Notes: generated by a model from the letters alone, not told the origin. Shown: positions 8,148 to 33,212, counted from the first letter of the stretch. The stretch is 64,000 nucleotides of DNA from an uncultured virus (IMG/VR IMGVR_UViG_3300037114_000074) (IMGVR_UViG_3300037114_000074); one strand, 5' to 3'. A program made the numbers and translations.

Positions 8148-9839
8148 TCAGGACCCCGCCGGCTTGCCCTTGTCCTTGCCGTTCCCCTTGCCCTTGCTGT
8201 CCTGCTGCCGGGCGACGTCCGCTTTGGCCGCGCGGCGCGCGGGACCGGCAGCCTCGGCCGCAGCGTCCGGGTCGTCCAGGTCTGGCAGGTCCTCGGTCTC
8301 CAGGTCCTTGCCGATGCCGTGGTACCCGGAATCCTTGTCCCCGGCCACGCGCGCGCGCTCGTCGACTGGCGAAAGGGCGCCGGAGGCGATGAGCGAGGCG
8401 CCGGTCTCCGCCTTGTTGAGATTCACCTGGCTCCGCTCCACGTGCGTCAGCGCGTCCAGCTCGTGCCACTTGACGATGATCTCGGCGTCCGCGAGCTCCT
8501 TGAACTTCGGCAGCACCTCCGACTTCATCACCAGCGCGTGGTGCCGCTGCGCGAACGGGGTGAAGTCCCGCTCCTGCATCGACTCCAGCATCTCGTGGTA
8601 ACTCGCCTCGTCGTACTCCCCCGTGGCCGCGAAGCCGCCCGGGGTGGTGCCCAGCAGCTTGGTGATCGGGCAGCCGGCGGTGGCGGCCACCAGCCCGTAC
8701 TGCGTAAACACCAGCCCGTCGAAGTCCGCGAGCGGGGTGTCGAATTGCTTGAAGTCCTCGGTCTCCTTGTCGCCCATCTTGATGCCGAAGTTGTCGCGGT
8801 TCGCGATCCAGTTCTGCACCACCGTCTCCGCCTTTTCTGAGTCCGCCATGACCTTCGCCATGTCCGTCAGCCACACCGTGGTGCGCTTGGACAGCGCCAG
8901 CGCCGGAGCCTCGTTCGCCGTGCGCTCCGCGCAGTACACCCGCTCCATGATCATCTGCGGCAGCGGCACGCCGCCGAACATATACATCGGCTTCAGCACG
9001 TCCACCGGTTCCGCGTACCGGAAGATCACGAGGTGGCTGCGGTGCACGCGCCGGCTGCCGATAAGCCACCAGGTGGGCTCGTAGAAGTTGCGGTTGGTGG
9101 GCACCGCGGCCGACGTGATATCCAGAATCGGCGCGCACCAGTAGGGGTCCACCTGGCTAAAGCCTTTGTAGGAGCCCGCGGTCACGCCGTCGATGTTGAA
9201 GGGCTTCTCGTAGTACGCCGGGTCCTTGCTCTCCACCTCGAACAGCGCGATGCGTATGCCGAAGATGCGGCCCTTGGTGCCGAACTCTCTCAAGCCCTTG
9301 ATCATGCCGTGCCGGCGGTCGGCGCTCTTAATCAGCTTCAGCGCCTCCTCGGGGATGTCCTCACCCGAGACCGTGGTGATTTCGTAGCCGTTGCGGATCG
9401 CATCGTCCACCGGCACGGCGCACGCCTTGTACACGAGCCAGTGCTGCGCGATGAACCCGGCGCTCTGGTAGCCGATAAACCCCTGGCGCATGAACCAGGG
9501 TATGAGCGACAGCTGCTGCCCGGCCTGCAGCACGGCTTGCTTGAAGGCGGGGAGGCCGGAGTCCGCGTCATCCATCGCGGAGGATAGTGTGACCAGCGGG
9601 TCCTTGGCGTCCATCGCGGCGCCGGCGACGGGCGGGCGCCACACCTGGATGCGGTCGAACGCCGCGCGCGCTGCCGCCTGGAACGCCTCGACCTGGCGAC
9701 GCTCAAGCTCCTGCTGCGCGCGCAGCATGCGGCTCGACACCGAGTTGCCCTCGTACTTGTCGGCGCGGCTCCTGGGCTCAGGCGCAGCGGCGGCGGCGGG
9801 GCGCTTGCGGCGCAGCAGGTCAAGGAGACGGTTGAACAC
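8148..9839 (-). CDS. Portal protein (DUF1073 family)
   Basis: FIGYQ..GFIAQHWLVYKAC..PVDDAIR, EPTWW..VHRSHL and PITKLLGTTPGGFAATGE motifs; GAGG RBS. Confidence 0.9.
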   Translation of the reverse strand: MFNRLLDLLRRKRPAAAAAPEPRSRADKYEGNSVSSRMLRAQQELERRQVEAFQAAARAAFDRIQVWRPPVAGAAMDAKDPLVTLSSAMDDADSGLPAFKQAVLQAGQQLSLIPWFMRQGFIGYQSAGFIAQHWLVYKACAVPVDDAIRNGYEITTVSGEDIPEEALKLIKSADRRHGMIKGLREFGTKGRIFGIRIALFEVESKDPAYYEKPFNIDGVTAGSYKGFSQVDPYWCAPILDITSAAVPTNRNFYEPTWWLIGSRRVHRSHLVIFRYAEPVDVLKPMYMFGGVPLPQMIMERVYCAERTANEAPALALSKRTTVWLTDMAKVMADSEKAETVVQNWIANRDNFGIKMGDKETEDFKQFDTPLADFDGLVFTQYGLVAATAGCPITKLLGTTPGGFAATGEYDEASYHEMLESMQERDFTPFAQRHHALVMKSEVLPKFKELADAEIIVKWHELDALTHVERSQVNLNKAETGASLIASGALSPVDERARVAGDKDSGYHGIGKDLETEDLPDLDDPDAAAEAAGPARRAAKADVARQQDSKGKGNGKDKGKPAGS

Positions 9840-11568
9840 GGGGGGAAGTTCCTCGCCTTACGGCTGTGCGCTCCGAGGCGCGTTCCATTTCTTCAGGGAT
9901 AATCGGCCGGCTGATGCAGCGGCAATTATGCGCTATAATAGCACCGGCAATGTACCACCCACTGGCGGTCTCGAGGTTATACACATGGCCCTCAAACTTC
10001 ATACGTACGACCCTGACGAGTCGCGCGAGCTTCGCCGGCAACACGAAGCCGGTGTATCCGTGCTCTCGCTGGCGAGACAACACGGTATTGCCAGAGGTGC
10101 AATAGTCGCCAGGATCAAGTTCGCCGGCGGCTCCGTGCGAGGTTGCAGCGACGCCATGTTCGTGCGCATGAGTCGCGCTACCAAGGCGGAGCGCAAACGC
10201 CTCGCGCGCGCTGCCAATGCTGCGCGCCGCGGAAGCAAGGCCGGAGAAGCCGAGTTGCTTACGAAAGCTCGCGCGAAGTCTCGGATCGTCGGTAGAGGGG
10301 AGCGCGAACTCCTGGCAGCCCTGCAAACGCACCAACTCCCCACCGAAGGTCAGCGGCCGTGCGGCAAATACAACATCGACATCGCCATCGGCGACTGCGT
10401 CGCCGTGGAAGTCTTCGCTAAAAGTCTTCTTGATCACGCGAAGTTTACGGGCGGCATCGAGCGCGCCAAACACCTCAGAGATAGCGGGTACGCGTTGGTC
10501 TACGTTAAATTCACGCCGCGAGCTGGACGACGAGGACGCAAACTCGCTACTGCAGATCCCCTCATCGGGAACTTGCCACACATAGTCGCCTTCCTGGAGC
10601 GACTTTACGGCGACCCAACCTTGCGGCGTAAGAACTGGATGATTCTGTGTCGCGCGTACCGCTTTACCAGAGTCCGTAACCAGCTCGGTCACCTCACCGC
10701 TGTACCAACGCCGGTACGCTACTCTCACACGATCAGCGAACTGGACCTGTGAGTCTCCCGGAAAGCAGTTGATCGGCGTGCCAGGGAACACCCACTCCTG
10801 GTCCACCTCGCTCCACATGCCCTTGGCGAGGTCGTAGCGTTTGCGCTCCCGCCCCCACCGCACGTGCTCGGGCCGCGGCACCTTGCCGGCGTGGGAGTGG
10901 ATCCAGACGGCCTCCGTCACGCCCAGCTCCTGCCGCCGCGTGTTCTCCAGCACCGCCTTGGCTTTGTTGGTCTGATCGCGGCTGATGATCGCCGCCCGGC
11001 GGTACGTCACGCCGTACCGCTGCCGCAGCCCCTTCGACAGCTCGCGCTGCGCCCCGCCCTTCATCACGGCCGTCGCGACCAGCTTCTCGACCCCGCGGTG
11101 GAACTGCCGCGGGATGCTGCGGATCAGCGCCACGTTATCCGCCACCATCGCCTGGTGCGCGGTCACCATGCCGGCGCTGGGGGCGAAGCGCACGGTGAAC
11201 CCGGCGTCGCGGAGCCGGCGCTTGAAAGCGGCGTCTACGTAGCGGCGCGATCGCCGCACGAACAGCTTCGCCATGTCGGCCGCCATGCGGTCGAACCGCT
11301 CCTCCCACCGCACGCCCCACTCGGCGAACGCCCGGCGCAGCGCCACCTCGGGCGCCTCGTCGAACGCGGCCCCGACCGTTGCCAGCCTCGCACCCTCGGG
11401 GGAGGAGGGGACTGTTACCGGTTCGTCAACGGAAGGGGCCGTCGGATCAAACTTCTTCAGTACCTCCAACATCTCCACCGCCATCGCCCGCGCGAGCTGC
11501 TGCAGCCGGCGCGCGTACCAGGCGCGCACCGCTTGCGATGGGTAGACGGGCTTAAGGGTGGCGGGCAC
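9820..11568 (-). CDS. MuF (phage Mu gpF-like) head morphogenesis protein containing an intein
   Basis: RAAIISRDQT, WIHS..KVPRPEH; PGTPIN|CRC is split by a Hint domain. Confidence 0.9.
   Translation of the reverse strand: MPATLKPVYPSQAVRAWYARRLQQLARAMAVEMLEVLKKFDPTAPSVDEPVTVPSSPEGARLATVGAAFDEAPEVALRRAFAEWGVRWEERFDRMAADMAKLFVRRSRRYVDAAFKRRLRDAGFTVRFAPSAGMVTAHQAMVADNVALIRSIPRQFHRGVEKLVATAVMKGGAQRELSKGLRQRYGVTYRRAAIISRDQTNKAKAVLENTRRQELGVTEAVWIHSHAGKVPRPEHVRWGRERKRYDLAKGMWSEVDQEWVFPGTPINCFPGDSQVQFADRVRVAYRRWYSGEVTELVTDSGKAVRATQNHPVLTPQGWVAVKSLQEGDYVWQVPDEGICSSEFASSSSSSRREFNVDQRVPAISEVFGALDAARKLRVIKKTFSEDFHGDAVADGDVDVVFAARPLTFGGELVRLQGCQEFALPSTDDPRLRASFRKQLGFSGLASAARSIGSAREAFALRLGSATHAHEHGVAATSHGAAGELDPGDYCTSGNTVLSRQREHGYTGFVLPAKLARLVRVVRMKFEGHVYNLETASGWYIAGAIIAHNCRCISRPIIPEEMERASERTAVRRGTSPRVQPSP
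9934..9977 (+). promoter_or_regulatory. Putative -10 box and RBS of the antisense nuclease gene
   Basis: TATAAT at 9934-9939 and GAGGT at 9973-9977, 7 nt before ATG 9985; weak -35 CTGATG at 17-nt spacing. Confidence 0.55.
9985..10752 (+). CDS. HTH + Vsr/DUF559-like endonuclease nested antisense inside the intein
   Basis: 255 aa; HTH SVLSLARQHGIARGAIVARIK; nuclease pattern GERELLAAL..QRPCGKYNIDIAI..VAVEVF..ERAKHLRDSGYALVYV; own RBS. Confidence 0.75.
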   Translation: MALKLHTYDPDESRELRRQHEAGVSVLSLARQHGIARGAIVARIKFAGGSVRGCSDAMFVRMSRATKAERKRLARAANAARRGSKAGEAELLTKARAKSRIVGRGERELLAALQTHQLPTEGQRPCGKYNIDIAIGDCVAVEVFAKSLLDHAKFTGGIERAKHLRDSGYALVYVKFTPRAGRRGRKLATADPLIGNLPHIVAFLERLYGDPTLRRKNWMILCRAYRFTRVRNQLGHLTAVPTPVRYSHTISELDL

Positions 11569-17122: not shown

Positions 17123-17617
17123 ATGTTAGTCGTAGTCGAGGGAGTCGACGGGTCGGGTAAATCGACCCTCGTGCAGACGCTGAGAAAGCAACCGGGACAA
17201 TATTGTATGATCATCCAGGCCTCGAGGCCTCGGGGTATCGGGGATTTAGAGAACTTCTTCGACGCGACCGCATCTCTCAAGAATCAGATCGACGGGACTG
17301 TGATCTGCGATCGATTCCATCCAATCAGCGAGTGCGTCTATGGCTCAGTCCTGCGGGGCAGGTCGACACCCCTGAGTGAGGTGGTGAAGTACCTCATACA
17401 CGTCGATCTGATCATATACTGCCGATCTTCCCTCGAGACGATACGAGTCAACCTACCAAAGAGTCCTCAGATGTTGGGAGTGTTTGAAAACCTCGTCAAG
17501 TTGACCGAGGCCTATGATTTGCTGATGAGGCATTTAAGACTCGTCCGACCTATCATAGAGTACGATTACACAACGAACTCAATCTCCGAGGTTACGAAGA
17601 TCATCTATGGAAACTAA
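17123..17617 (+). CDS. dNMP (thymidylate-like) kinase
   Basis: VVEGVDGSGKST P-loop and ICDRF..SECVYG. Confidence 0.85.
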   Translation: MLVVVEGVDGSGKSTLVQTLRKQPGQYCMIIQASRPRGIGDLENFFDATASLKNQIDGTVICDRFHPISECVYGSVLRGRSTPLSEVVKYLIHVDLIIYCRSSLETIRVNLPKSPQMLGVFENLVKLTEAYDLLMRHLRLVRPIIEYDYTTNSISEVTKIIYGN

Positions 17618-22419: not shown

Positions 22420-23187
22420 GTGACCGACATCGTGCAGTGGGCGCACAGAGACCTGCGCCCGTTCGTCCGCGCGGCGCTGGGCGCCGGGTGGCGCGTGCAG
22501 CACAGCGGCGACTCGCACCTCAAGTGGCTGAGCCCCGATGGGGAGAGCATCGTGCACTCGTCGGGGAAGACGCTCACCAGCCGCCGCACGCTCGAGAACA
22601 TCCGCCAGCAACTAATGCACGCCGGGCTGAAGCTCGGGTACGACAACCACGCAGAGGAGAGACCCGTGACAGAGACCACACCGCCCGCCACCACTAACCT
22701 CGGCGACGTACTCAAACAGGCACAGGCGCCGCCCACCGCGCCGGCGCAGCCCGAGAAGTCTAACGGTCACGCCAGGGTAATCGACGACCGCGATACGCGG
22801 ACGGTCGTCGAGGAGCTGATGGGCCGCGAGCCCGAACGTGTGTGGAAGAGCGAGGACGTGGTGGCGGGGGTGCTGCGCGTCAAGGACGTCTCGGCGGCCG
22901 CGGTGTACCTGGCGATCAAGAACGCTATGCTCAGCGGCCGCGTCCACAAGTTCGGGCGCGGCTCCTACCAGTGGCGCTCGACGTCTGGTCGGGCAACCGC
23001 GCGCCTGGAACCTGCGCCGCTGCCCGCCGGCGCGCGCACCGGGGACGAGGCGACGGACCGCGATCTCGAGGAGCTCGACGAGGCGCTCGCGGCGCTGGCG
23101 CGGATCGAGGCGATGATCCGCAAGCACCGGAAGGCGGTGACGCAGCTCGCGGAGTTGAAGCGCACGCTGGCGGGGATCGCGCTATGA
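22420..23187 (+). CDS. HicA-like N-terminal domain fused to a winged-helix-like domain
   Basis: GWRVQHSGDSHLKWLSPDG...SRRTLENIRQQL is HicA-like; SAAAVYLAIK..GRVHKFGRGSYQW is wHTH-like. Confidence 0.55.
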   Translation: MTDIVQWAHRDLRPFVRAALGAGWRVQHSGDSHLKWLSPDGESIVHSSGKTLTSRRTLENIRQQLMHAGLKLGYDNHAEERPVTETTPPATTNLGDVLKQAQAPPTAPAQPEKSNGHARVIDDRDTRTVVEELMGREPERVWKSEDVVAGVLRVKDVSAAAVYLAIKNAMLSGRVHKFGRGSYQWRSTSGRATARLEPAPLPAGARTGDEATDRDLEELDEALAALARIEAMIRKHRKAVTQLAELKRTLAGIAL

Positions 23188-23606
23188 CTACACCCTTCGA
23201 AGATGTTGGTGAGTTCCATGATCGCATGGGTCTCCCCCACCTAAAGGATGGTATGCCTCGAATAATGGAAGATCGAGAATATCGATACCGACTCACATTT
23301 CTACAGGAGGAGTTGACCGAGTTTATCGAGGCTCATGCTCGGGGGGATCTCGCAGGTTGCGCCGATGCTCTGGCGGATTTGATCTGGGTTGCATATGGGA
23401 CGGCTCACCATATGAAGTTGCCTCTCGATGCGGTCTGGGCCGAAGTTCGACGCGCGAACATGGACAAACGGCGTTGGCGGGAAGGGGACCTGGTAAAGGC
23501 ACGAAACTACACCGAGAACGAAATAGTCAAACCCTCGGGGTGGGTGGCCCCCAATATTGAGAGAGTCTTGATCATCCATAGGAACCTCCTGAGAAACAAC
23601 GAATGA
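23184..23606 (+). CDS. MazG/PRA-PH-like nucleoside triphosphate pyrophosphohydrolase
   Basis: DVGEFH, LQEELTEF, ADALADLIWVAYG, EVRRANMDK, IVKPSGW. Confidence 0.85.
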   Translation: MTTPFEDVGEFHDRMGLPHLKDGMPRIMEDREYRYRLTFLQEELTEFIEAHARGDLAGCADALADLIWVAYGTAHHMKLPLDAVWAEVRRANMDKRRWREGDLVKARNYTENEIVKPSGWVAPNIERVLIIHRNLLRNNE

Positions 23607-23944
23607 TCGACTGCAAGCAAGGAATCCCGAGACATCCCTCTTATAAACGACTCTTGCTCATTCGAGGGAGTCTCGATGTAGAACCGGGAATTTATGTAGT
23701 CAAGTGGTTTCCGGTCGTCTCAGCAGACGACCCTGAATCCATCTGGACTTGGGTCTCGGAGGGACGAGGATTATCAATCCTAACTCTCGAATTGAATCGC
23801 GAAATCCTTCGTAAGAAATGGTTGGATCTTGTTGGTCGAGTCCAAGTGAATATCGAGTATTTTGATTCCTTACGGTTCGATCGTCCCGTAAGATCCAAAG
23901 AATTATCTACTGAGGGGCAGGGATTTGCCGTTAACTCCACCTAA
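23603..23944 (+). CDS. Hypothetical protein
   Basis: 113 aa ORF coupled to both neighbours. Confidence 0.5.
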   Translation: MIDCKQGIPRHPSYKRLLLIRGSLDVEPGIYVVKWFPVVSADDPESIWTWVSEGRGLSILTLELNREILRKKWLDLVGRVQVNIEYFDSLRFDRPVRSKELSTEGQGFAVNST

Positions 23945-24701
23945 GGATTTCCCCGCTTGGGGCGCAATTATGGCCTGCCTCGAGGCGCCGTTGTTTGAGT
24001 ACAACGGGGCGCGTCGCATCTCTACCAACGTACTGTGGCAGCCCGAAAGACTTCCATGGATTACCCTTGAGCAGATGGCGCACCTCGGCTACGCACGCCC
24101 TGAGACGAAACTGAAGGCCCTTGATCGAATGTACTACAACGAGCTAGAGGCTGCTCGCGTACGAGCTCTACTGAAGAAGCGAGAGGGCCAAGCTTTCTCA
24201 GCTGTCTCCATGTCGATGCTTGCCGGAGCGAAGGATGCTCGATCGATGGGGCATTGTCTAAGTGCTATCATGCTCTCTCTAACCCCGAAACGGGCCGAAG
24301 TGACTGTAACCTACCGCTCTACTGAATTGATCAAGAAATTCTCCGCGGATCTAGCTTTCATACCTCGAGTGCTAGAGCGGATTGGCGTGATGAAACCTGA
24401 TCGCGTCTCATTTTTCTTCTCCAATTGCTTTGTATCGGGGGTGTTCTTCCCCACGCTAATGCGATACGTCGATCCGATTGAGTTTCTTGAGTTCCTGCGC
24501 AAGCGGGAGCACCCAATGTTTATCGTAGCGACGAGATTTCTGCGTCGATCGGTTCGTACTCGCGAGCAGGACTTCCCATTTTCGCCTGAGCGAATGCAGC
24601 ACGAGTTTGCCTGGAAGCACTACCCCGAGAAGATGCCACTCATCCGTCGATACTTGAAGGAACACCTCCATGGCAAGCAGCCGAAAATCAATCGCCGGTA
24701 A
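23925..24701 (+). CDS. Divergent thymidylate-synthase-fold protein A
   Basis: GHCLSAIML...VTYRSTELIKKFSADLAF mirrors the TS PC...RSxD...N region. Confidence 0.6.
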   Translation: MPLTPPKDFPAWGAIMACLEAPLFEYNGARRISTNVLWQPERLPWITLEQMAHLGYARPETKLKALDRMYYNELEAARVRALLKKREGQAFSAVSMSMLAGAKDARSMGHCLSAIMLSLTPKRAEVTVTYRSTELIKKFSADLAFIPRVLERIGVMKPDRVSFFFSNCFVSGVFFPTLMRYVDPIEFLEFLRKREHPMFIVATRFLRRSVRTREQDFPFSPERMQHEFAWKHYPEKMPLIRRYLKEHLHGKQPKINRR

Positions 24702-24957
24702 AGTTGAGTATGTCAAAGCACAAGGTCAGAGTCGATTTCACACCTGTCACTGGCCTGGATGTAAGACACAAGTCCCCCCCGCGATGTGGGGTTGTCAACT
24801 TCACTGGTTCCGGCTCCCCGCCGGTCTTCGTGCGCGCATCTGGCGAGCTTACCAACCAGGACAGGAAAGAACTCTCCAAGTTTCTGAAGCGTATCTCGAG
24901 GTTGCAAACGAAGTCCAGGAGTGGATCTCCAAACAGATTCGTCCCATCAACCGATGA
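24670..24957 (+). CDS. Cys/His-rich conserved phage protein
   Basis: HTCHWPGC..QVPPAMWGC..HWFRLP. Confidence 0.6.
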   Translation: MASSRKSIAGKVEYVKAQGQSRFHTCHWPGCKTQVPPAMWGCQLHWFRLPAGLRARIWRAYQPGQERTLQVSEAYLEVANEVQEWISKQIRPINR

Positions 24958-25040
24958 AGACCTTAAACGCTATGCTGCAGCGGGGGCGAAGAAGCGCGGG
25001 TTGAAGAGCGAGGATAAATCCGAAGCGAGGAGGCGTCGCC

Positions 25041-25265
25041 GTGCCGAAAGAAAGCGTCGAGAAAACCGCGGCTGAATTCGCAGCTGAGTTGAACCGTGAC
25101 ACCCTGATAGCTCAGGCCGTAGAGATCCGTCAGCTTCGTAGTCTCGTCGATGAAGCCAAGCGATTCATCGACGGATTCGCAGCGAGTGCCGAATCAGGTT
25201 TTACTCGCCGACGCAAGGCGCTAGAATGGATCAAACGCTACAAGGAAATTCGGGATGTACCATAA
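25041..25265 (+). CDS. Hypothetical protein
   Basis: GGAGG RBS, 74 aa. Confidence 0.55.
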   Translation: MPKESVEKTAAEFAAELNRDTLIAQAVEIRQLRSLVDEAKRFIDGFAASAESGFTRRRKALEWIKRYKEIRDVP

Positions 25266-26037
25266 CTTCGACGGAATGCTCATCAATCTGCACAAGAAGA
25301 TGAAGAACTGCTCGGTCCCAGTTCACCCTGACAAGTGGCAATCGATCGACGTCTCGAAGAAGCCCGAAGCCGAGATGCGTGAGCTCCTCAACGTCTACTT
25401 CCAGGTCGTTATTGGAACGACTGATCTTCAGAGTCATCGGCTCGACATTAAGCCCGCGCTCCCCTGGGCGGATCGCCACTTCGAACTCGAGCGCGTCAGT
25501 GGGCAGCCGATCAACCCTGGGACGACGTGGAAGGAGTGGCCCTTCGCCCACAGCGCTGATCGGTTTCGGACCGAGGGTGAGTGCTTCTCCCACACGTACG
25601 CCGAAAGGTACTGGCCAAAGATGGCCAACGCCGAGTTGCTGAATGATCTACGACCGCTTCAGGGTGTTCGCTATTTATATGGCGACCTTAAGGACGTAGT
25701 TGATCTTCTCATACGTGAGCCCTTAACGCGTCAGGCATACCTTCCTGTGTGGTTCCCGGAGGACACCGGCGTTGTCCACGGCGAACGCGTACCCTGCACG
25801 CTGGGGTACCACTTCATGCGTCGCAACGATGAGTTCTCGATTTTCTATCCAATACGCTCATGCGACTTCGTCCGGCACTTTCGTGATGATCTCTACCTGA
25901 CGGTGCGCCTGCTGCTGTGGGTTCTGAACGAACTGCGCGAGCGCGATATGGGCGTATGGAATAAAGTTCGCCCAGGAACTTTCACAATGTGGATCGGATC
26001 TCTCCATGTGTTTATAAATGACTGGAGAAAACTATGA
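25255..26037 (+). CDS. Thymidylate synthase / pyrimidine hydroxymethylase-like protein B
   Basis: EPLTRQAYLPVW, RVPCTLGYHF, IRSCDFVRHFRDD, IGSLHVF. Confidence 0.85.
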   Translation: MYHNFDGMLINLHKKMKNCSVPVHPDKWQSIDVSKKPEAEMRELLNVYFQVVIGTTDLQSHRLDIKPALPWADRHFELERVSGQPINPGTTWKEWPFAHSADRFRTEGECFSHTYAERYWPKMANAELLNDLRPLQGVRYLYGDLKDVVDLLIREPLTRQAYLPVWFPEDTGVVHGERVPCTLGYHFMRRNDEFSIFYPIRSCDFVRHFRDDLYLTVRLLLWVLNELRERDMGVWNKVRPGTFTMWIGSLHVFINDWRKL

Positions 26038-26297
26038 ATAAGAAAGCCACTACCACCTCAACTCGTGCAAAATATCTCGTCGCGAGTTTCGACGATCATC
26101 CGTATGGATACGGCTACTGTTCCCTCCTAGGACAACCTCAGCGGACTACTCGGTTGTTAGCTGAATTACCACTCCCCTCAAGGTTGGAGAATGGACTAAT
26201 GGCATTCGAGCTCAGAGACGCCGCTGATGCAGCGGGACTTCCCGGTACTCAAGTCTTCACTCGGATGCTGAAGGATCGTCAGCTCTGGAAGCTGTAA
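26034..26297 (+). CDS. Hypothetical protein
   Basis: 87 aa, coupled to neighbours. Confidence 0.45.
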   Translation: MNKKATTTSTRAKYLVASFDDHPYGYGYCSLLGQPQRTTRLLAELPLPSRLENGLMAFELRDAADAAGLPGTQVFTRMLKDRQLWKL

Positions 26298-26744
26298 ATG
26301 ACCAATCGAATCTCCCGCTACGACCTCTACTTCACGATCGCGCGAGCGGCCGCTAAGCGCTCGACGTGTCAACGTAAACACATTGGGGCTGTGATAGTTC
26401 CCCGCCGTGGAGTTCTACTGATAGGCTACAACGGCGCCCCTCAGGGCCTTCCACACTGCCTCGATGCTGGCTGCCTAATAGGCTCGGATGGAGGTTGCCT
26501 ACGCACCCAGCACGCTGAGGCCAACGTGATTGCCTGGGCCGCTCGAAACGGTATCGCTCTCGCAGGCGCTGAGATGTTTACAACAGTCAGTCCATGCCTC
26601 TCCTGCGCGAAGATGATCATCAACGCTGGGGTCGAATCGGTTTTATACCTCGAGGCATACCGTGAGGTTCAGCCTCTCGAATATCTAAAAGACGCCCGAG
26701 TACATGTAGACATTTATCACCCAGAGAAAATTGATGCCTCGTAA
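26298..26744 (+). CDS. dCMP deaminase
   Basis: RSTC..IGAVIV, GYNG, HAEAN, PCLSCAK zinc motifs. Confidence 0.92.
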   Translation: MTNRISRYDLYFTIARAAAKRSTCQRKHIGAVIVPRRGVLLIGYNGAPQGLPHCLDAGCLIGSDGGCLRTQHAEANVIAWAARNGIALAGAEMFTTVSPCLSCAKMIINAGVESVLYLEAYREVQPLEYLKDARVHVDIYHPEKIDAS

Positions 26745-29223
26745 CCCCCATTGCGAGAAGTGTGGCCTATCGAAGACGACCACTGGGAATATCTGTGTAT
26801 GGGGTGACGGGCCTCAGAACGCCGACGTGGTGATCATCGGCGAGGCCCCCGGCGAGGCCGAAGCCAGGACGGGCAAGCCATTTCAGGGGAAGTCAGGTCA
26901 GCTTTTACGAGGCGAGCTCGCCACGGCTGGCCTAACGAGTACCTACATCACCAACGTAGTGAAGTGTCGTCCCCCCCAGAATCGAGCCCCGACGCCTACC
27001 GAGATCAAAGCCTGTCGCGAATATCTCGACGACGAGTTCGCGACGATCAAGCCGAAAGCGATCTTAGCTCTGGGAGCGGTTGCCTCGAAGGCCGTACTGA
27101 AGAAGGCCAAGATCACCAGCATCCACGGTCAGATTCTCGAGAAGGACGGCGTTGTGACCTCAGCGATCTACCACCCGGCCTACTGTCTGCGCGATCCATC
27201 AAAGCTACCGGCCTTTCAGCAAGACTTGCGTCGATTCTCTGCCCACCTGCGGGGCGAGAAGCGTACCTCGACGGTCAACTGGGCGATCGTACAGCGAGAG
27301 AACTTGTCGAAGTTCATCAGCGACCTGCGGATCTGCACGGAGTTTGCGTTTGACACCGAGACCTCTGGGCTTAACTGGTTCGACCCCGAAAATCGATTTT
27401 TCCGTTGCGTCCAAATTGCAATCCAGTACCCAGGGGGCGCTGACTTTGGTTGGGTGATCCCGATGTCAATGGAGGGTTCTCCCTTCCCGACGGGCCGCCT
27501 GCAGACTCAGATCATGGACATCGTCTTCGACGAGCTCGAAGGCAAGCCGGCCTGCGCTCAGAACGGCAAGTTCGACAACCTGTGGCTTTGGGCGATCTTC
27601 CGCCGCAAGTTTCACTTGACCTTCGACACGATGCTCGCGAGTCACACGCTCAACGAGAATCAGGACCACGACCTGAAGTCCCTAGTTCGAGGAATACTCG
27701 ACGAGCCGGACTATGACATCGATCTCGCGATCAAGCGGGGCGAGGTCGTCAGTCCAATGCGACTTTACAAGTACGGTGCTTTCGATGCCGTCTATACGCT
27801 ACGCCTGAAGCACAAGTTCATGGCGCAATTCCGACGCGATGTGACACTCCGAAAATTGTTCTTCAAACTAGTGATGCCGGCCGCACGCTCCTTCCAGGAC
27901 ATCGACAGCAATGGCCTGTACGTTAATCTCGAGAGAATGGCCGAGACCGAGCTGGATGTCGCGAAACAACTCAAGCAGACGTTAGCCGAGTTAAACTCGA
28001 TGACGCCACGCCAGATCAACTGGAACTCGTCGCAGCAGGTAGCGTCCTTGCTCTACGGGGATCTGAAGCTCCCGGTAGTAGTGAAGACTGATAAGGGCGC
28101 GCCGTCTACTGGGGAAGAGGCTCTCCTCGCGATCAAAGGCAAGCACCCGATCGCCGAGAAACTCGTGAAGTACCGCGAGCTCGAGAAATTCCGCTCGACC
28201 TATCTGGACGGATGGAAAGAGTTTATGGTCGGTCCGATGCTCTACTTGTCGACCAAGTTACACGGGACCGTGACGGGTCGTTACTCGAGTCGCCTCCATC
28301 AGGTGCCACGCGACGGTACGATCCGCTCGCTAGTCGAAGCCCCTGAGGGCTGGACGTTTGTGCAGGGAGACCTCAGTCAGGCCGAGCTACGCGTGGCAGC
28401 GATTCTCTCACATGACGCTGAGTTAGTCACCTGCTATCGCCGCGGAGTGGACGTCCACTGGCGTACGCTCCTCCATCTGATAGGAAAAGGTTCAGCCGCC
28501 TCTTATGTCGACCCAGCGTGGAAGACAGCCACCGCTCTGAACGGACGCCGACGACCCTCCTCGTTAACCATCGCTCTTGAGCTTCTCATGAAGGCTGGTC
28601 CTGATCGTTGCACTGAGGTCTGGAAGGGATGGAAGGAAGCTCGTAAGACTGCGAAGGCTACCAACTTTGGATTCCTGTTCGGGATGATGGAGGCGAAGTT
28701 CATCGAGACTTGCAAATTGAAGTACGGTTTTGAGCCGACGATGAAGGAAGCTAAATCGATGCGAGAGGGTTTCTTCCAACTTTATAGACAGTTGCCTGAC
28801 TGGCACAAGAAGCAGAAACGCCTCGTCCATCTAAACGGCTACGTCCGAAACCTTGCGGGTCGTATGCGACGTCTGCCAGGGGTCCACTCTCCTGATTGGT
28901 CCCTCGCGAGCGAGTGCGAACGACAAGCGATTAACTCACCGGTGCAGGGTTACATCGGGGACCACAAGGCGATGGCAGCCATCGAAATCCATGAGACCTT
29001 CGATTGGGAGCGCGAACTTCGAATTGTTGGAGAAGTGCACGACGCTCTGCTACTATGGATACGAACCGATCGACTTCAAAAAATTCTACCGCGCGTCGCC
29101 GCCATCATGAGAGAGCCTAAGCTCGTCCGAGAATTTGGAATCAAACTCACAGTGCCGCTTGAAGCTGATCTGACGATTGGGCCGTGGGGCGCCGGGAAGA
29201 CGTGGAGAGAAACTCATGCCTGA
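26734..29223 (+). CDS. Family A DNA polymerase with N-terminal family-4 uracil-DNA glycosylase-like domain and 3'-5' exonuclease
   Basis: UDG: CEKC, GEAPG, TNVVKCRPP.NR.P, HPAY; exonuclease: FDTET, NGKFD, YGAFD; polymerase: DLSQAELR, AKATNFG, EVHD. Confidence 0.93.
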   Translation: MPRNPHCEKCGLSKTTTGNICVWGDGPQNADVVIIGEAPGEAEARTGKPFQGKSGQLLRGELATAGLTSTYITNVVKCRPPQNRAPTPTEIKACREYLDDEFATIKPKAILALGAVASKAVLKKAKITSIHGQILEKDGVVTSAIYHPAYCLRDPSKLPAFQQDLRRFSAHLRGEKRTSTVNWAIVQRENLSKFISDLRICTEFAFDTETSGLNWFDPENRFFRCVQIAIQYPGGADFGWVIPMSMEGSPFPTGRLQTQIMDIVFDELEGKPACAQNGKFDNLWLWAIFRRKFHLTFDTMLASHTLNENQDHDLKSLVRGILDEPDYDIDLAIKRGEVVSPMRLYKYGAFDAVYTLRLKHKFMAQFRRDVTLRKLFFKLVMPAARSFQDIDSNGLYVNLERMAETELDVAKQLKQTLAELNSMTPRQINWNSSQQVASLLYGDLKLPVVVKTDKGAPSTGEEALLAIKGKHPIAEKLVKYRELEKFRSTYLDGWKEFMVGPMLYLSTKLHGTVTGRYSSRLHQVPRDGTIRSLVEAPEGWTFVQGDLSQAELRVAAILSHDAELVTCYRRGVDVHWRTLLHLIGKGSAASYVDPAWKTATALNGRRRPSSLTIALELLMKAGPDRCTEVWKGWKEARKTAKATNFGFLFGMMEAKFIETCKLKYGFEPTMKEAKSMREGFFQLYRQLPDWHKKQKRLVHLNGYVRNLAGRMRRLPGVHSPDWSLASECERQAINSPVQGYIGDHKAMAAIEIHETFDWERELRIVGEVHDALLLWIRTDRLQKILPRVAAIMREPKLVREFGIKLTVPLEADLTIGPWGAGKTWRETHA

Positions 29224-29458
29224 CTTAGAACGTGGTCTCTACCCGAAGTTCATTGTTCACCGAACCGATCGTGAAGACGGCGAAGGACGACGGCATTACG
29301 ACTGCGAGTACTTCGTACTCGACGTGAATCATGACCCGCATGCGAAGGCGGCGATCAAAGCCTACGCTGAGTCGTGTCGAGCTGAGTACCCTGCGTTAGC
29401 TGCAGACCTCGACCTGATGCTCACGAGGTGTCGATTCACTCGAGACTGGGAGAAGTAG
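29216..29458 (+). CDS. Conserved small phage protein
   Basis: MPDLERGLYPKFIVHRTD...YFVLDVNHDPHAKAA..AYA. Confidence 0.65.
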   Translation: MPDLERGLYPKFIVHRTDREDGEGRRHYDCEYFVLDVNHDPHAKAAIKAYAESCRAEYPALAADLDLMLTRCRFTRDWEK

Positions 29459-29459
29459 A

Positions 29460-30440
29460 ATGCTCATCGTCGGTTTCTCTCGCATCCGAGCTTGGCGTCG
29501 ATGCCACAGACTCTACTGGTACCGATACATCCTGTGCTTGGAGCGAAAGCGCCCGAAGGTCCAGTTAATCCGCGGGACGATCCTCCACGCGATGCTCGAC
29601 GCGAAGGCTAAGGGCAAAAACCCAGCCTCGGTGCTGCGTCAGTACGCCAAGGAATACGGTAAGCTCTTCCGTGAGGAGCGCGATGAGTATGGAGATTTAA
29701 TTGGCGATTGCAAAAAGCTCTTCGACAACTACCAGCGACACTACGCTGACGACGGCTACAAGATCCTCGAGTCTGAGTACGAGGTACAGGTCCCACTTCT
29801 GAAAGAGGTGACCTTCCAGGGGCACATCGACAAGGTCGTCCTGGATCCGCAGAAGCGCCGTTGGATCAAGGATCATAAGAGCCACAAGAACATCCCAGGA
29901 GAGGAAGCGCGATTCTCCGATCTGCAGACGGTGTTCTACACATGGGCGTGGAACAAGTTAAATCCACGCCGCCCAGTTGACGGCATCATCTGGGACTACA
30001 TCCGCACCAAGCTGCCGGTCGAGCCCGAAGTCCTGAAGTCGGGGCAGCTCTCGCAGCGGGCGAACATCGACACTACGTATGACGTCGCCTTAGCGGCTGT
30101 ACAGGCCCACTGCAAGCGAACTGGCGAGGACCAGCAGCACTATACTGAATGGCTCGAAGGACTGAAAGGGCGCGAGGAGAAGTTCCTGAGGCGAGTGTAC
30201 CTCCCGAGTCCGCCGAGAGTAATGGTTGATCAAATCGTTAGCGAGATGGTAACGACCTCTCAGGAGATCTTACGATCGCACGACGATACGACCCGCAATA
30301 TGACGAAGGACTGCTCGTGGTGCTCGTTCTACAATCTGTGCCACGCCGAGCTCCGAGGTCAGGACTCCGACTTCATCCGCAAGACCGAATACGTAGTCAA
30401 CCAGGAGATGCTTGATGGCGATCAAGAAGAGGAAGAGTAA
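29460..30440 (+). CDS. PD-(D/E)XK exonuclease (RecB/Cas4-like)
   Basis: C..LYWY, GTILH, GHIDKV, IKDHKS, QTVFY, CSWCSFYNLC. Confidence 0.85.
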   Translation: MLIVGFSRIRAWRRCHRLYWYRYILCLERKRPKVQLIRGTILHAMLDAKAKGKNPASVLRQYAKEYGKLFREERDEYGDLIGDCKKLFDNYQRHYADDGYKILESEYEVQVPLLKEVTFQGHIDKVVLDPQKRRWIKDHKSHKNIPGEEARFSDLQTVFYTWAWNKLNPRRPVDGIIWDYIRTKLPVEPEVLKSGQLSQRANIDTTYDVALAAVQAHCKRTGEDQQHYTEWLEGLKGREEKFLRRVYLPSPPRVMVDQIVSEMVTTSQEILRSHDDTTRNMTKDCSWCSFYNLCHAELRGQDSDFIRKTEYVVNQEMLDGDQEEEE

Positions 30441-31230
30441 CCCGACTCAATTCGGGGACATCAAGTCGAAGATCGCGCCCGTCAGTGAACTGGCGAGTGA
30501 GTTCTCGAGTTTGATTTACGGGCGCAGTGGAACTGGCAAGACTGCGGTGTCGTCGAGTTGGCCGAAGCCAATGCTGCTCGTCGACATCCGTGAAAAAGGT
30601 ACCGACACCATCGCGAAGGTTCCTGGCATCGATGTCATCTCGATCGAAGAATGGGCCGAGATAGAGCAGGTCTACTGGTACTTGAAGTCGAACGAGTCAA
30701 AGTACAAAACGGTCTCGATCGATCAGATTTCCCAGATGCAAGACCTGGCGATGGCTGAGATCAAGGGGACCGGTAAAGAGGAGAGCGACATTCTCTCGCG
30801 ACGCGACTGGGGTCAGATCGCCGGTCTGATGAAAACCTGGCTCTACAATTATCGAGACCTGACGAACTCCGGGATCTACGTGGTCTTCATCGCTCACGAA
30901 CGCACGAACAGCGCCGACGAGAGCGTAGAGGACCAGATCGATCCGTCGATCGGAGCTCGCCTGATGCCGTCGCTTGCCTCGGCGGTCAACGGTGCGGTCT
31001 CAGTGATCGGCAACACTTTCATCCGTGAGGAGTACACAGGTCAGGGGAAGGACAAGGAGCGCGCAGTGAAGTACTGCATGCGCATCGGGCCACACGCGTA
31101 CTACACGACGAAGATCCGACGTCCAATTGACTTCGTCGCCCCTGAGTTTATCGTCAATCCGACGTTTGACAAGATCACCAAGATCATTCGTGGTGAGAGA
31201 TCCGAGCCAAAACGAAAAGTTCATAAGTGA
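30415..31230 (+). CDS. AAA_24 / Sak4-like ATPase
   Basis: IYGRSGTGKT, TVSIDQIS, VVFIAHE. Confidence 0.85.
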   Translation: MAIKKRKSNPTQFGDIKSKIAPVSELASEFSSLIYGRSGTGKTAVSSSWPKPMLLVDIREKGTDTIAKVPGIDVISIEEWAEIEQVYWYLKSNESKYKTVSIDQISQMQDLAMAEIKGTGKEESDILSRRDWGQIAGLMKTWLYNYRDLTNSGIYVVFIAHERTNSADESVEDQIDPSIGARLMPSLASAVNGAVSVIGNTFIREEYTGQGKDKERAVKYCMRIGPHAYYTTKIRRPIDFVAPEFIVNPTFDKITKIIRGERSEPKRKVHK

Positions 31231-31242
31231 AGGAGTAGATCA

Positions 31243-31872
31243 ATGGCGATTAGAAAAGGTGGAAAGAAGAAGGGACTGTCTGTCGACTTCTCTGGCGTCG
31301 AGTCCGGGGGGAAGGCCGTACCCGACGGCGCCTACGAGGTCGAGGTCGTCGAGGTCACTGAGGAGGAAGGTGCCGATAGCGGCAACCCCTATCTGAAGTG
31401 GAAGTTCCGTATTACCGAGGGGGACTCGAAGGGCGCCGCCCTGTACGACAACACCTCGTTGCAGCCGCAGGCCCTCTGGCGGTTGAAGGGACTCCTCGAG
31501 GTCCTGGGTGTCGAGGTTCCCGATAGCTCGATGGAGTTGGACCTCGCCGAGTACACGGGCCAGACGCTGACCGTCACCGTAGTGAACGAGGAGTTCCAGG
31601 GGCGCGACCGTCCGAAGGTGGATTCCTACGGCGGCGATGCCGATAAGTCGTCTCGCAGTGGTAAGACGACTAAGAAGAAGACGCCCACCAAGGATGATGA
31701 CGACGACGACGACGACGACGACGAATTTAAGAAAGGCGACCTCGTTCAGTTCGAGGACGAGGGCAAGAAACTGAAGGGCAAGGTCGTCTCGGTCGACGGG
31801 GATACCGCGACCGTCGAAACGAGCGACGGGGAAGAGTGGGAAATCGAAGCGAGTGACCTGAAGAAGTTGTGA
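31243..31872 (+). CDS. DUF669-like single-stranded DNA-binding protein
   Basis: VPDGAYEVEV..SGNPYLKWKF..ALWRLK; poly-Asp tract; AAGGAG RBS. Confidence 0.8.
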   Translation: MAIRKGGKKKGLSVDFSGVESGGKAVPDGAYEVEVVEVTEEEGADSGNPYLKWKFRITEGDSKGAALYDNTSLQPQALWRLKGLLEVLGVEVPDSSMELDLAEYTGQTLTVTVVNEEFQGRDRPKVDSYGGDADKSSRSGKTTKKKTPTKDDDDDDDDDDEFKKGDLVQFEDEGKKLKGKVVSVDGDTATVETSDGEEWEIEASDLKKL

Positions 31873-33212
31873 TCCGAAAGCAACTTCGGCCGAACCAGGC
31901 CGAAGCCGTCCAGCGGTGGAAAGATCGACTCGCTGACGGCTTCGGCCTTTTCGATGAGCAGCGCGTCGGGAAGAACCTTCCCGCCCTCGCGATTGTCGAT
32001 CACGAGAAACCCGCCCGCCTACTGATTATCACTCTCAAGAAAGGGATCAAAGTCTGGCAGAAGGAGATCGCCGAGAGCTTAGCGCTCGACTGGCCATGTG
32101 AAATCCAGATCATCAACTTCAACCAGGTCGAGCGTAAGTCGACCTTCCGCAAGTTGAAGCTCTGGCTCGCGGGCGACACTTCCTTTATGATCGTCGATGA
32201 GGCGCAGCACATCAAGCGTCGAGGATCGAAGTGGTCCAGGCGTTGTCGCCTGATCGGGCGCAAGGCGGATCATCGACTCGCCCTGACTGGGACCCCGATT
32301 GCTCAGGGGATCTGGGACGCCTGGGCGATCTTCGACTACCTCGGCCCGAGCATCTTCGGTAAGTGGGCGATCACCCAAAAGAAACTCCGACCCGGGCAGC
32401 GGCCGATCATTCAGGTGGTGAGTGGTTTTCAGCATCGCTACCTGCTGATGGACCCCTTCTGGCGGTCGAAGGTGATTGGCACGCAAAACGAGGAGGAGTT
32501 CTATCAGGTCTTCCACGCCCATTCGATTCGCCACACGCTAGCTGAGGTGCGCAGACGCGCTGGACTGAAACCCGCGCGTATCCGTCGAGTAGTCCTGACT
32601 GAGCCTCTTAGTGACGCTGAGCGGCGCTCGTACATAGAGCTCGAGAAGGAGCTCGTGACCGTCGTTAATCGGCGGCGCATTGAGACCCCCCTTGCTATGA
32701 CCCTGACGATGAAGCTCCAGCAGATCTGTGGAGGCTTCGTTATCGACGAGGACGGAGTAGTCCACGAGCTCGGCAACACGAAACTCAGACTCCTTCTGCT
32801 GGCGCTGGGGCGCCTGACGAAGAAAGACCGACCCCTCGTGATCTGTCGCTTCCTGCACGAGCTCGAAGCGATCGCGCGAGTCCTAGACTTCGCAGGCTAC
32901 TCAGTCAAGCGCATTCAGGGAGGCATCGACTTCGATCCAAACGAGAAGATCAAGGAGACCGCGATCGTACTACAAATCCAATCGGGAGTAGCGATCGATC
33001 TAGCCATAGCGAACGTCGCGATCTTCTACTCCTGGGATTTCAGCTATATCAACCATGAGCAGAGCCGCTTTCGGATTTTGCAGTACATCTCAACGAGGGT
33101 GTCATATTATTACCTCGTTATGAAGGGGACCATCGACGAACTGATTCTCGAGGCGGTCCTGAGAAAGAAGAGACTCGCAGATCTTGTCTGCGATCACTAC
33201 AGGAGACGATGA
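31869..33212 (+). CDS. SNF2-like SF2 helicase
   Basis: IVDEAQHIK, LALTGTP, KLQQICGGF, GTIDE. Confidence 0.85.
   Translation: MIRKQLRPNQAEAVQRWKDRLADGFGLFDEQRVGKNLPALAIVDHEKPARLLIITLKKGIKVWQKEIAESLALDWPCEIQIINFNQVERKSTFRKLKLWLAGDTSFMIVDEAQHIKRRGSKWSRRCRLIGRKADHRLALTGTPIAQGIWDAWAIFDYLGPSIFGKWAITQKKLRPGQRPIIQVVSGFQHRYLLMDPFWRSKVIGTQNEEEFYQVFHAHSIRHTLAEVRRRAGLKPARIRRVVLTEPLSDAERRSYIELEKELVTVVNRRRIETPLAMTLTMKLQQICGGFVIDEDGVVHELGNTKLRLLLLALGRLTKKDRPLVICRFLHELEAIARVLDFAGYSVKRIQGGIDFDPNEKIKETAIVLQIQSGVAIDLAIANVAIFYSWDFSYINHEQSRFRILQYISTRVSYYYLVMKGTIDELILEAVLRKKRLADLVCDHYRRR

Follow-up and report, generated by a model that had tools for sequence, protein, structure and literature searches.

The 64,000-nucleotide stretch of the uncultured virus IMGVR_UViG_3300037114_000074 (the window, by which we mean the whole stretch) encodes two proteins of the thymidylate synthase (TS) fold, designated here protein A and protein B. 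Their genes are clustered with those of a MazG-type pyrophosphatase, a deaminase of the deoxycytidine monophosphate (dCMP) deaminase family and a family A DNA polymerase (PolA), and this cluster is conserved among related loci. The cassette around A is of a kind already described and linked to modified cytosine; the undescribed part of it is protein A and its pairing with B. We found no paper that describes A or any case of an Asp-type TS homologue accompanied by another TS-fold gene, in a literature search with limited coverage of subscription journals. The cassette is probably the nucleotide-pool half of the phage replication module, a pre-replicative set of enzymes that would rewrite the deoxypyrimidine pool around cytosine, by a logic analogous to that of the T4 and Xp12 pathways.

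Protein A has no match in Pfam, and a single-sequence search of the PDB returned none. Its AF2 model has a pLDDT (predicted local distance difference test) of 93.6. The top Foldseek match of the model is T4 dCMP hydroxymethylase (E 1.8e-5). The best VIA match is AfhB of phage HY126 (9iqu; Z 11.8, root-mean-square deviation 3.6, 172 aligned residues), MilA (Z 10.5) and T4 dCMP hydroxymethylase (Z 9.7) are among the others, and all 50 VIA matches listed are TS-fold entries. The nearest models in BFVD are “uncharacterized” phage proteins, with the orthologue from PMBT14 first (template-modelling (TM) score 0.74). A separate observation is that the match at rank 8 in BFVD is a 408-residue protein with a deaminase domain, which hints at fusions of TS-fold domains with deaminases.

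Protein B gives 16.6 bits against the TS family PF00303 (E 0.0044) and does not reach the cut-off of 24.3. For its AF2 model (pLDDT 84.8), MilA is both the top Foldseek match (E 9.3e-12, TM 0.61-0.67) and the best VIA match (Z 18.2, root-mean-square deviation 2.6, 212 aligned residues). The predicted structures confirm the TS fold of A and of B alike, as the original prediction had required of A in particular.

The substrate preference of TS-fold enzymes depends on position 177 of E. coli ThyA, where replacement of Asn by Asp turns TS to dCMP (PMC8670742). Here and below, statements cited to papers draw on the available portions of their texts, and the positions S167, C168, D169, G173 and N177 are numbered after the text of PMC13326640, not after the ThyA sequence itself. 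The original prediction had aligned A and B to ThyA by eye, quoted a motif from each and read Asp at the specificity position in both. The quoted strings are exact: residues 131-142 of A are RSTELIKKFSAD and residues 201-212 of B are RSCDFVRHFRDD. The alignment is borne out as well. The B-family profile has cytosine-specific enzymes as its leading PDB matches (MilA, E 2.4e-6; AfhB, E 2.3e-5) and places C181 on their Cys and RSCD...D212 on their R..D. The register of A comes from T4 dCMP hydroxymethylase, which is the sole TS-fold match of the A-family profile in the PDB and a weak one (E 0.11); it places C111 on C148, M108 on D145 and R131...D142 on R...D179. A direct hhalign comparison of A with B, taken for register only and not as proof of homology, gives the same register with a weak score (probability 0.5%, E 0.11).

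The presumed catalytic residues are conserved across both families. In B, R178, C181, R201, H208 and D212 are invariant in 80/80 distinct sequences, and Asp204, the equivalent of position 169, is present in 79/80, with one Glu. The A family comprises at least 192 clusters at 50% identity. K62, Y70, C111, R131 and D142 are kept in 142/142 of its representatives and E134 in 139/142 (142 of 150 listed representatives were used; those outside 180-340 residues were left out). Because Cys, Arg and Asp are invariant, A appears to be active, as a second enzyme or as a subunit, and not a decayed copy.

Other positions set the two proteins apart. The residue three positions before the catalytic Cys (position -3) is Arg in B, and in A it is Met108 in the window, with Gln in 80/142 and Met in 39/142 representatives. 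The signature at position -3, the 169-equivalent and the 177 site is therefore Arg, Asp and Asp in B, and Met (Gln in most relatives), Glu and Asp in A. Protein B also has no TS tail: its model stops at E. coli TS residue 216, and B sequences extend a median of 14 residues past His251.

Pairing of A with B is recurrent. GenBank holds A in 18 records, with B adjoining in 18/18, and B in 116 records; B is adjacent in 8/8 IMG/VR loci found via A. We also surveyed IMG/VR from the side of B. Among the best 80 of the 425 B loci there were 74 distinct sequences of B, and 70 loci were evaluable after four with too little upstream DNA were set aside. All co-occurrence counts refer to the first-generation A profile at E<1e-10, which was used because the iterated profile pulled in short open reading frames (ORFs) downstream of B. 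By this measure A is present in 53/70 evaluable loci, and in about 57/70 if hits of later-round profiles are added. In 38 of the 53 loci A lies directly upstream of B on the same strand, and in about half of these 38 the stop codon of A overlaps the start codon of B.

The neighbouring genes were counted in the 55 B loci that had 3 kb or more on each side, 42 with A and 13 without it. The deaminase is present in 41/42 loci with A vs 7/13 without, and PolA in 41/42 vs 4/13. Among the loci with A, 31/42 have MazG and 31/42 a kinase homologue within 8 kb; across loci, the place of the pyrophosphatase is taken by a MazG type in some and by a dimeric-dUTPase type in others. The clustering proposed in the original prediction is thus a conserved one. 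Loci in which B stands without A sit in different genomic backbones. Four distinct contigs with A encode ThyX within the A-B cassette or next to it, in one of them between A and B; this speaks against A or B being the thymidylate (dTMP) synthase in those contigs. No dihydrofolate reductase (DHFR) of the PaMx74 type was found in any surveyed locus.

Several further observations were made in the surveyed loci. The genes upstream of B in loci without A include four C5 cytosine DNA methylases (L020:6884-8005, L022:4892-7054, L025:6444-7700 and L073:6275-7513, the second also with intein and endonuclease-like domains), an N6/N4 methylase and two IMPDH/GMP-reductase-like genes. Nine longer or odd hits of the A profile had no informative domain and were rejected; P0250 (3475 residues, Big_3 repeats) is a spurious repeat match. 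Among the 18 GenBank records with A, the A homologue is labelled “pyrimidine hmase synthase” in two (MW202455.1 and PP693299.1), apparently by an automatic pipeline, and is hypothetical or unannotated in the remaining 16.

A distant form of A, recognised by a weak sequence match, occurs in actinophages. In mycobacteriophage Muddy (gp47) and Gordonia phage Nibbles (gp43) the gene immediately upstream of B encodes a “hypothetical protein” of 297-302 residues. The two proteins are 46% identical to one another and match the A profile weakly by hhalign (E 1.8e-4 and 8.2e-5). They keep the Cys and the Arg-x10-Asp spacing and have lost the Glu. There are 85 records of this form. By genus, its totals agree with those of B (Gordonia 68, Mycobacterium 9, Streptomyces 4, Microbacterium 2), although the two sets were not matched record by record. 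In the iterated A profile, Muddy gp47 was drawn in at the third round only.

A third TS-fold-like ORF of 175-226 residues lies just 3' of B in several loci (L029:9398-9967; L014:10216-10743; L009:12890-13570, which equals L067:8815-9495; L046:9044-9580), and none is present in the window. Its sequence includes a Cys and the motif YRS-x-ELIGGF-x-YD, which repeats the Arg-x10-Asp spacing, and its E-values against the first-generation A profile are 3e-7 to 1e-5. In PMBT14 (L012) the coding sequence annotated as “dCMP deaminase” (9799-10758) is 319 residues long, with a long N-terminal extension. An ORF overlapping it in another frame (L012:9789-10337) matches the third-round A profile at E 4e-10 and has no match with the first-generation one; a faulty gene call or drift of the profile may lie behind this.

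In the window, the cassette lies in a single co-directional and tightly packed block (22.4-33.2 kb, + strand) with many overlaps of stop and start codons. All of the genes named in the original prediction were found where it had placed them, on the + strand, by Pfam, PHROG and structure models. The relevant features are as follows.

17123..17617 (+), deoxynucleoside monophosphate (dNMP) kinase of thymidylate type (phrog_761 “thymidylate kinase”, E 5.6e-23)
23184..23606 (+), all-alpha nucleoside triphosphate pyrophosphatase of MazG/PRA-PH type (PF01503, E 1.5e-17, 64.2 bits, cut-off 21.3)
23603..23944 (+), small ORF of 113 residues, overlapping both neighbours by a few bases
23925..24701 (+), protein A, TS-fold orphan according to its structure model, with Cys111, R131-S-T-E134 and Asp142 (phrog_34294, unknown function, E 4.3e-7)
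24670..24957 (+), small Cys/His-rich ORF of 95 residues between A and B (phrog_18063, unknown function, E 1.7e-28)
25255..26037 (+), protein B, putative TS-fold enzyme of Asp177 type from a large phage clade, without the TS C-terminal tail (phrog_160, E 1.5e-25)
26034..26297 (+), small ORF of 87 residues, with no match in Pfam, PHROG or related loci
26298..26744 (+), zinc deaminase of the dCMP deaminase family (PF00383, E 9.4e-21, 74.1 bits, cut-off 25)
26731..29223 (+), uracil-DNA glycosylase (UDG), 3'-5' exonuclease and family A DNA polymerase in one protein (PF03167, E 5e-33; PF01612, E 1.9e-14; PF00476, E 8e-63)
29460..33212 (+), rest of the replication module: PD-(D/E)XK nuclease, AAA_24 ATPase, DUF669 protein and SNF2 helicase (Pfam)

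The assignments of the enzymes around A and B have additional support. The MazG-type pyrophosphatase also matches phrog_671 (E 3.1e-26), and its top PDB match is DR2231 (E 3.8e-9). The deaminase matches phrog_174 (E 7.7e-46), with 2hvv as the top PDB match (E 1.8e-26), and its closest relatives in cultured phages belong to phages that also encode B. The kinase matches Pfam Thymidylate_kin in the P-loop only, at 24.5 bits, and does not reach the cut-off of 27. Protein B ends 260 nt upstream of the deaminase and the MazG gene 2.7 kb upstream, and PolA overlaps the stop codon of the deaminase. A and B are 553 bp apart, with the small gene in between. The 113-residue ORF has no match in Pfam or PHROG, and neither it nor the 95-residue Cys/His-rich ORF has a homologue across related loci. 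The gene order of the replication module is also found in MW202455, Polewnik, Serbin, PMBT14, Muddy and Nibbles.

The 64-kb window is entirely phage; it encodes a portal, a cement protein, a head protease fused to NUDIX, a prim-pol primase and a DUF3383 sheath-like protein. The head maturation protease (5259-7370, - strand; phrog_3778, DUF2213) carries the NUDIX hydrolase domain at its N-terminus (PF00293, E 2.1e-15). A 93-residue ORF between PolA and the PD-(D/E)XK nuclease (29177-29458, + strand) matches phrog_9572 “sulfatase-modifying factor enzyme” (E 1.7e-21). G+C content is 0.66-0.69 in the structural regions and 0.55-0.57 in the replication and nucleotide module (14-36 kb). The region 23184-29223 was found in contigs of 20 public runs, mostly labelled as peat or permafrost metagenomes, and 11 of these 20 runs contain at least half of the words sampled from it. 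Three of the 20 may be the source, and no RNA run is listed among them.

The favoured scheme is the following. The MazG-type pyrophosphatase would convert deoxycytidine triphosphate (dCTP), deoxyuridine triphosphate (dUTP) or both to the monophosphate. In B, and probably also in A, the conserved Cys would attack C6 of a cytosine nucleotide, and a group would be placed on C5; the cytosine substrate is what the rule for Asp at position 177 predicts. The dNMP kinase would then move the product into the pool of deoxynucleoside triphosphates, from which the phage PolA would incorporate it, and the deaminase may convert a portion of the (modified) cytosine nucleotides to nucleotides of thymidine type. 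Virion DNA would contain a C5-substituted cytosine, 5-methyl or 5-hydroxymethyl being the simplest candidates. The original prediction had proposed a modified cytosine nucleotide, or its deamination to a thymidine-type product, and such a pathway is still the best reading of the cassette, with both substrate and product being inferred.

A number of points weigh against this scheme. In 17/70 evaluable loci B stands without A, with unchanged catalytic residues. The A/B co-occurrence counts are inflated by common ancestry of the replication module, and the synteny is thereby confounded. By VIA Z, cytosine enzymes (18.2-17.4) are tied with ordinary TS (17.7-17.1) as matches of B, and therefore the structure shows the fold of B and not its specificity; the B model also has weak stretches at approximately 110-140 and 170-180, with block means of 49-59. 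As the original prediction had noted, no DHFR or glycosyltransferase was recognised when the 71 window ORFs, obtained by a crude greedy call, were compared with Pfam; no carbamoyltransferase or arabinosyltransferase was recognised among them either. In the literature we found no report of a modified base for the cultured carriers PMBT14, Serbin, Muddy and the Gordonia phages. Finally, the residues of A and of B agree with the signature of none of the characterised classes, i.e., TS, dCMP methylase, dCMP hydroxymethylase and 5-hydroxy-dCMP synthase, and the product is consequently not assignable.

The last point needs to be considered residue by residue. Position -3 is Leu (Leu143) in methylating TS and Asp or Glu in hydroxymethylases, where it activates water (PMC6400193, PMC13326640); accordingly, the D145N mutant of T4 dCMP hydroxymethylase produces no 5-hydroxymethyl-dCMP (PMC6400193). 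The C-terminal tail of TS closes the site for hydride transfer (PMC6400193, PMC13326640), and D169N is the mark of flavin-dependent 5-hydroxy-dCMP synthases (PMC13326640). A and B share with classical ThyA the fold and the catalytic Cys (Cys111 and Cys181) and differ from it in Asp for Asn177 (80/80 B, 142/142 A). Protein B further has Arg178 for Leu143 (80/80), lacks the C-terminal tail and stays below the PF00303 gathering score, while A has no match to that family at all. Like T4-type hydroxymethylases, both have Asp at 177/179, but neither has Asp or Glu at -3. The dCMP methyltransferases of Xp12/PaMx74 type are ThyA-like with N177D and retain the TS C-terminal region, which B lacks. The D169N mark is absent from both, with Asp204 in B and Glu134 in A. 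Thus the residues of B fit neither a methylase nor a hydroxymethylase, and since position -3 of A and B is neither Leu nor Asp/Glu and B is tail-less, folate chemistry is an assumption.

These same features leave room for a bolder proposal, in which A and B act jointly, as two enzymes or as a heterodimer, in a TS-fold system that adds a C5 group to cytosine nucleotides by chemistry unlike that of all four characterised classes. It is suggested by Arg or Met/Gln at the residue that decides between methyl and hydroxymethyl, by the missing TS tail of B and by the absence of D169N. We regard it as rather unlikely. If it were true, a base or a route not yet described would be widespread and extend to PMBT14, Serbin, Gordonia Emalynviruses and Muddy, a mycobacteriophage used in therapy.

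TS is an obligate dimer with active sites built across the interface. A and B could thus be two halves of an obligate heterodimeric TS-fold enzyme, each completing the site of the other. This would refine the favoured scheme and is compatible with it. A was never seen without B in the 18 GenBank records and eight IMG/VR loci; it is mostly directly upstream of B, often with overlapping stop and start codons, and the actinophage form (Muddy gp47, Nibbles gp43) occupies the same position, with genus counts equal to those of B. However, a full set of catalytic residues is present in each protein, and B manages without A in 17/70 loci with the same residues. Genes also intervene between the two, namely the 553 bp with a small gene in the window and ThyX in L009/L067, and tight packing is general in phage operons. 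No A-B fusion or longer A fusion was found among 1042 candidates, which is weak evidence. On balance, a heterodimer of this kind is a serious possibility, albeit one that we would not bet on.

Alternatively, the C5-substituted dCMP may be only an intermediate on the way from dCMP through 5-methyl-dCMP or its triphosphate to deamination and dTMP or thymidine triphosphate (dTTP), with canonical virion DNA. The linkage of the deaminase to B in 41/42 loci with A agrees with this, and so do the lack of reports of modified DNA that we could find for cultured carriers and the fact that no post-replicative modification genes were recognised in the window. A route of Xp12 type from 5-methyl-dCTP to dTTP has been described (bioRxiv 2024.12.05.627091). 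In the described cases, however, the same pathway also fills the DNA with 5-methylcytosine (bioRxiv 2024.12.05.627091). A second thymidylate route would be redundant in the carriers that encode ThyX, and B has neither the methylase-type Leu nor a TS-like tail. We consider this explanation unlikely, slightly more so than the novel chemistry discussed above.

An ordinary supply of dTTP is much harder to defend. Here B would be a plain TS methylating deoxyuridine monophosphate (dUMP), fed by a dCTPase and dCMP deaminase, and A an unrelated accessory. In its favour, B homologues are annotated in public records as thymidylate synthase, with the label thymidylate kinase for the kinase, VIA Z places ordinary TS structures level with the cytosine enzymes, and extra dTTP could help with a replication region whose G+C is lower (0.55-0.57 vs 0.66-0.69). 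Yet B has Asp instead of Asn at 177 in 80/80 sequences, Arg for Leu143, no C-terminal tail and a score under the PF00303 cut-off; some cassettes contain ThyX, and A is itself of the TS fold with Asp. We give this reading very little credence.

Still a little less probable is that A is no enzyme of the pathway and uses its TS fold for binding, as a regulator, as a nucleotide sensor or as a subunit poisoning the host TS dimer. Pfam detects no similarity of A to TS, its sequence diverges faster than that of B, and the equivalent of Glu134 is lost in actinophages, but Cys, Arg and Asp together with K62 and Y70 are invariant in 142/142 representatives, a pattern of a catalytic site and not of a scaffold.

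The favoured scheme, in which the cassette rewrites the pyrimidine pool around cytosine, would have consequences beyond this virus. Modification of phage DNA governs its cutting by host restriction and other nucleases, and it has yielded enzymes for epigenetic sequencing. Should A and B produce or process a modified cytosine, an unrecognised DNA chemistry would exist in several cultured phages that are in wide use, one of them in therapy, and the residue rules that predict the products of TS homologues would need a new class. If the DNA is canonical, the A-B pair still defines an unknown route of thymidylate metabolism. Both TS-fold genes are missed by the Pfam-based screens that are used to find modified-cytosine cassettes.

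Several known systems resemble this cassette in part. MilA, the CMP 5-hydroxymethylase of mildiomycin biosynthesis, is the best profile and structural match of B and has Asp at 177; it differs from B in Asp at -3, a ribonucleotide substrate and its place in a bacterial antibiotic pathway, and identity to B is 16-17%. Among the flavin-dependent 5-hydroxy-dCMP synthases (RB69 gp48, DLP3 gp80, HY126 AfhB), AfhB ranks first by VIA among the structural matches of A and near the top for B, and B and AfhB end at the same place. D169N is seen in neither A nor B, and no arabinosyl or glycosyl transferases were recognised in the window.

The T4 system consists of the gp56 dCTPase, the gp42 dCMP hydroxymethylase, the gp1 dNMP kinase and the Cd deaminase. 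The cassette would share its pathway logic, and gp42 resembles A and B in the TS fold, the Cys and Asp179, and B also in a short C-terminus. It is the only TS-fold match by sequence of the A profile in the PDB and ranks high among the structural matches of both proteins. The differences are Asp/Glu at -3, where B has Arg and A has Met/Gln, and a glucosyltransferase, which is not found in the window.

PaMx74 (JQ067093), named as a phage whose 5-methylcytosine replaces C (bioRxiv 2024.12.05.627091), has the same order of pyrophosphohydrolase, TS homologue and deaminase, with Asp at 177 of its TS, and its pyrophosphohydrolase is homologous to the MazG of the window (E 1.4e-15). Its TS is, however, a ThyA-like protein of 298 residues with RSSDVFVGLPYD, a long C-terminal region and an adjacent DHFR. 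Protein B is 24% identical to it over 135 residues, is approximately 48-57 residues shorter at the C-terminus and has no DHFR nearby. No A homologue is present among the annotations of the PaMx74 cassette, of which no A-profile search was made.

The closest counterpart of the cassette is the neighbourhood described in the MetaGPA papers. TS homologues, mostly with Asp177, co-occur there with PRA-PH and dCMP deaminase specifically on cytosine-modified contigs (PMC8670742). Deaminases with a TS within 3 kb number 104/149 on modified contigs vs 17/277 on unmodified ones, and the top neighbours of the deaminase are TS, PRA-PH, DNA_pol_A and its exonuclease (bioRxiv 2024.12.05.627091). Five of seven cognate TSs made 5-methyl-dCMP, and one deaminase was specific for 5-methyl-dCTP, yielding dTTP (bioRxiv 2024.12.05.627091). 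The window matches this neighbourhood in all four domains, in their close order and in Asp at 177, with the Asp177 TS homologue, PRA-PH and PolA all within 2.7 kb of the deaminase. The difference is the second TS-fold gene, which is not mentioned in the available portions of either paper (PMC8670742; bioRxiv 2024.12.05.627091). The locus would escape the MetaGPA screens, because A has no Pfam match and the E-value of B is 0.0044 vs the 1e-7 used there for PF00303. The original prediction had called the pathway uncharacterised. As far as these portions of the two papers go, that does not hold for the combination of an Asp177 TS with an in-cis deaminase, PRA-PH and PolA, and it does hold for protein A and the A-B pairing, which are the new part of the cassette.

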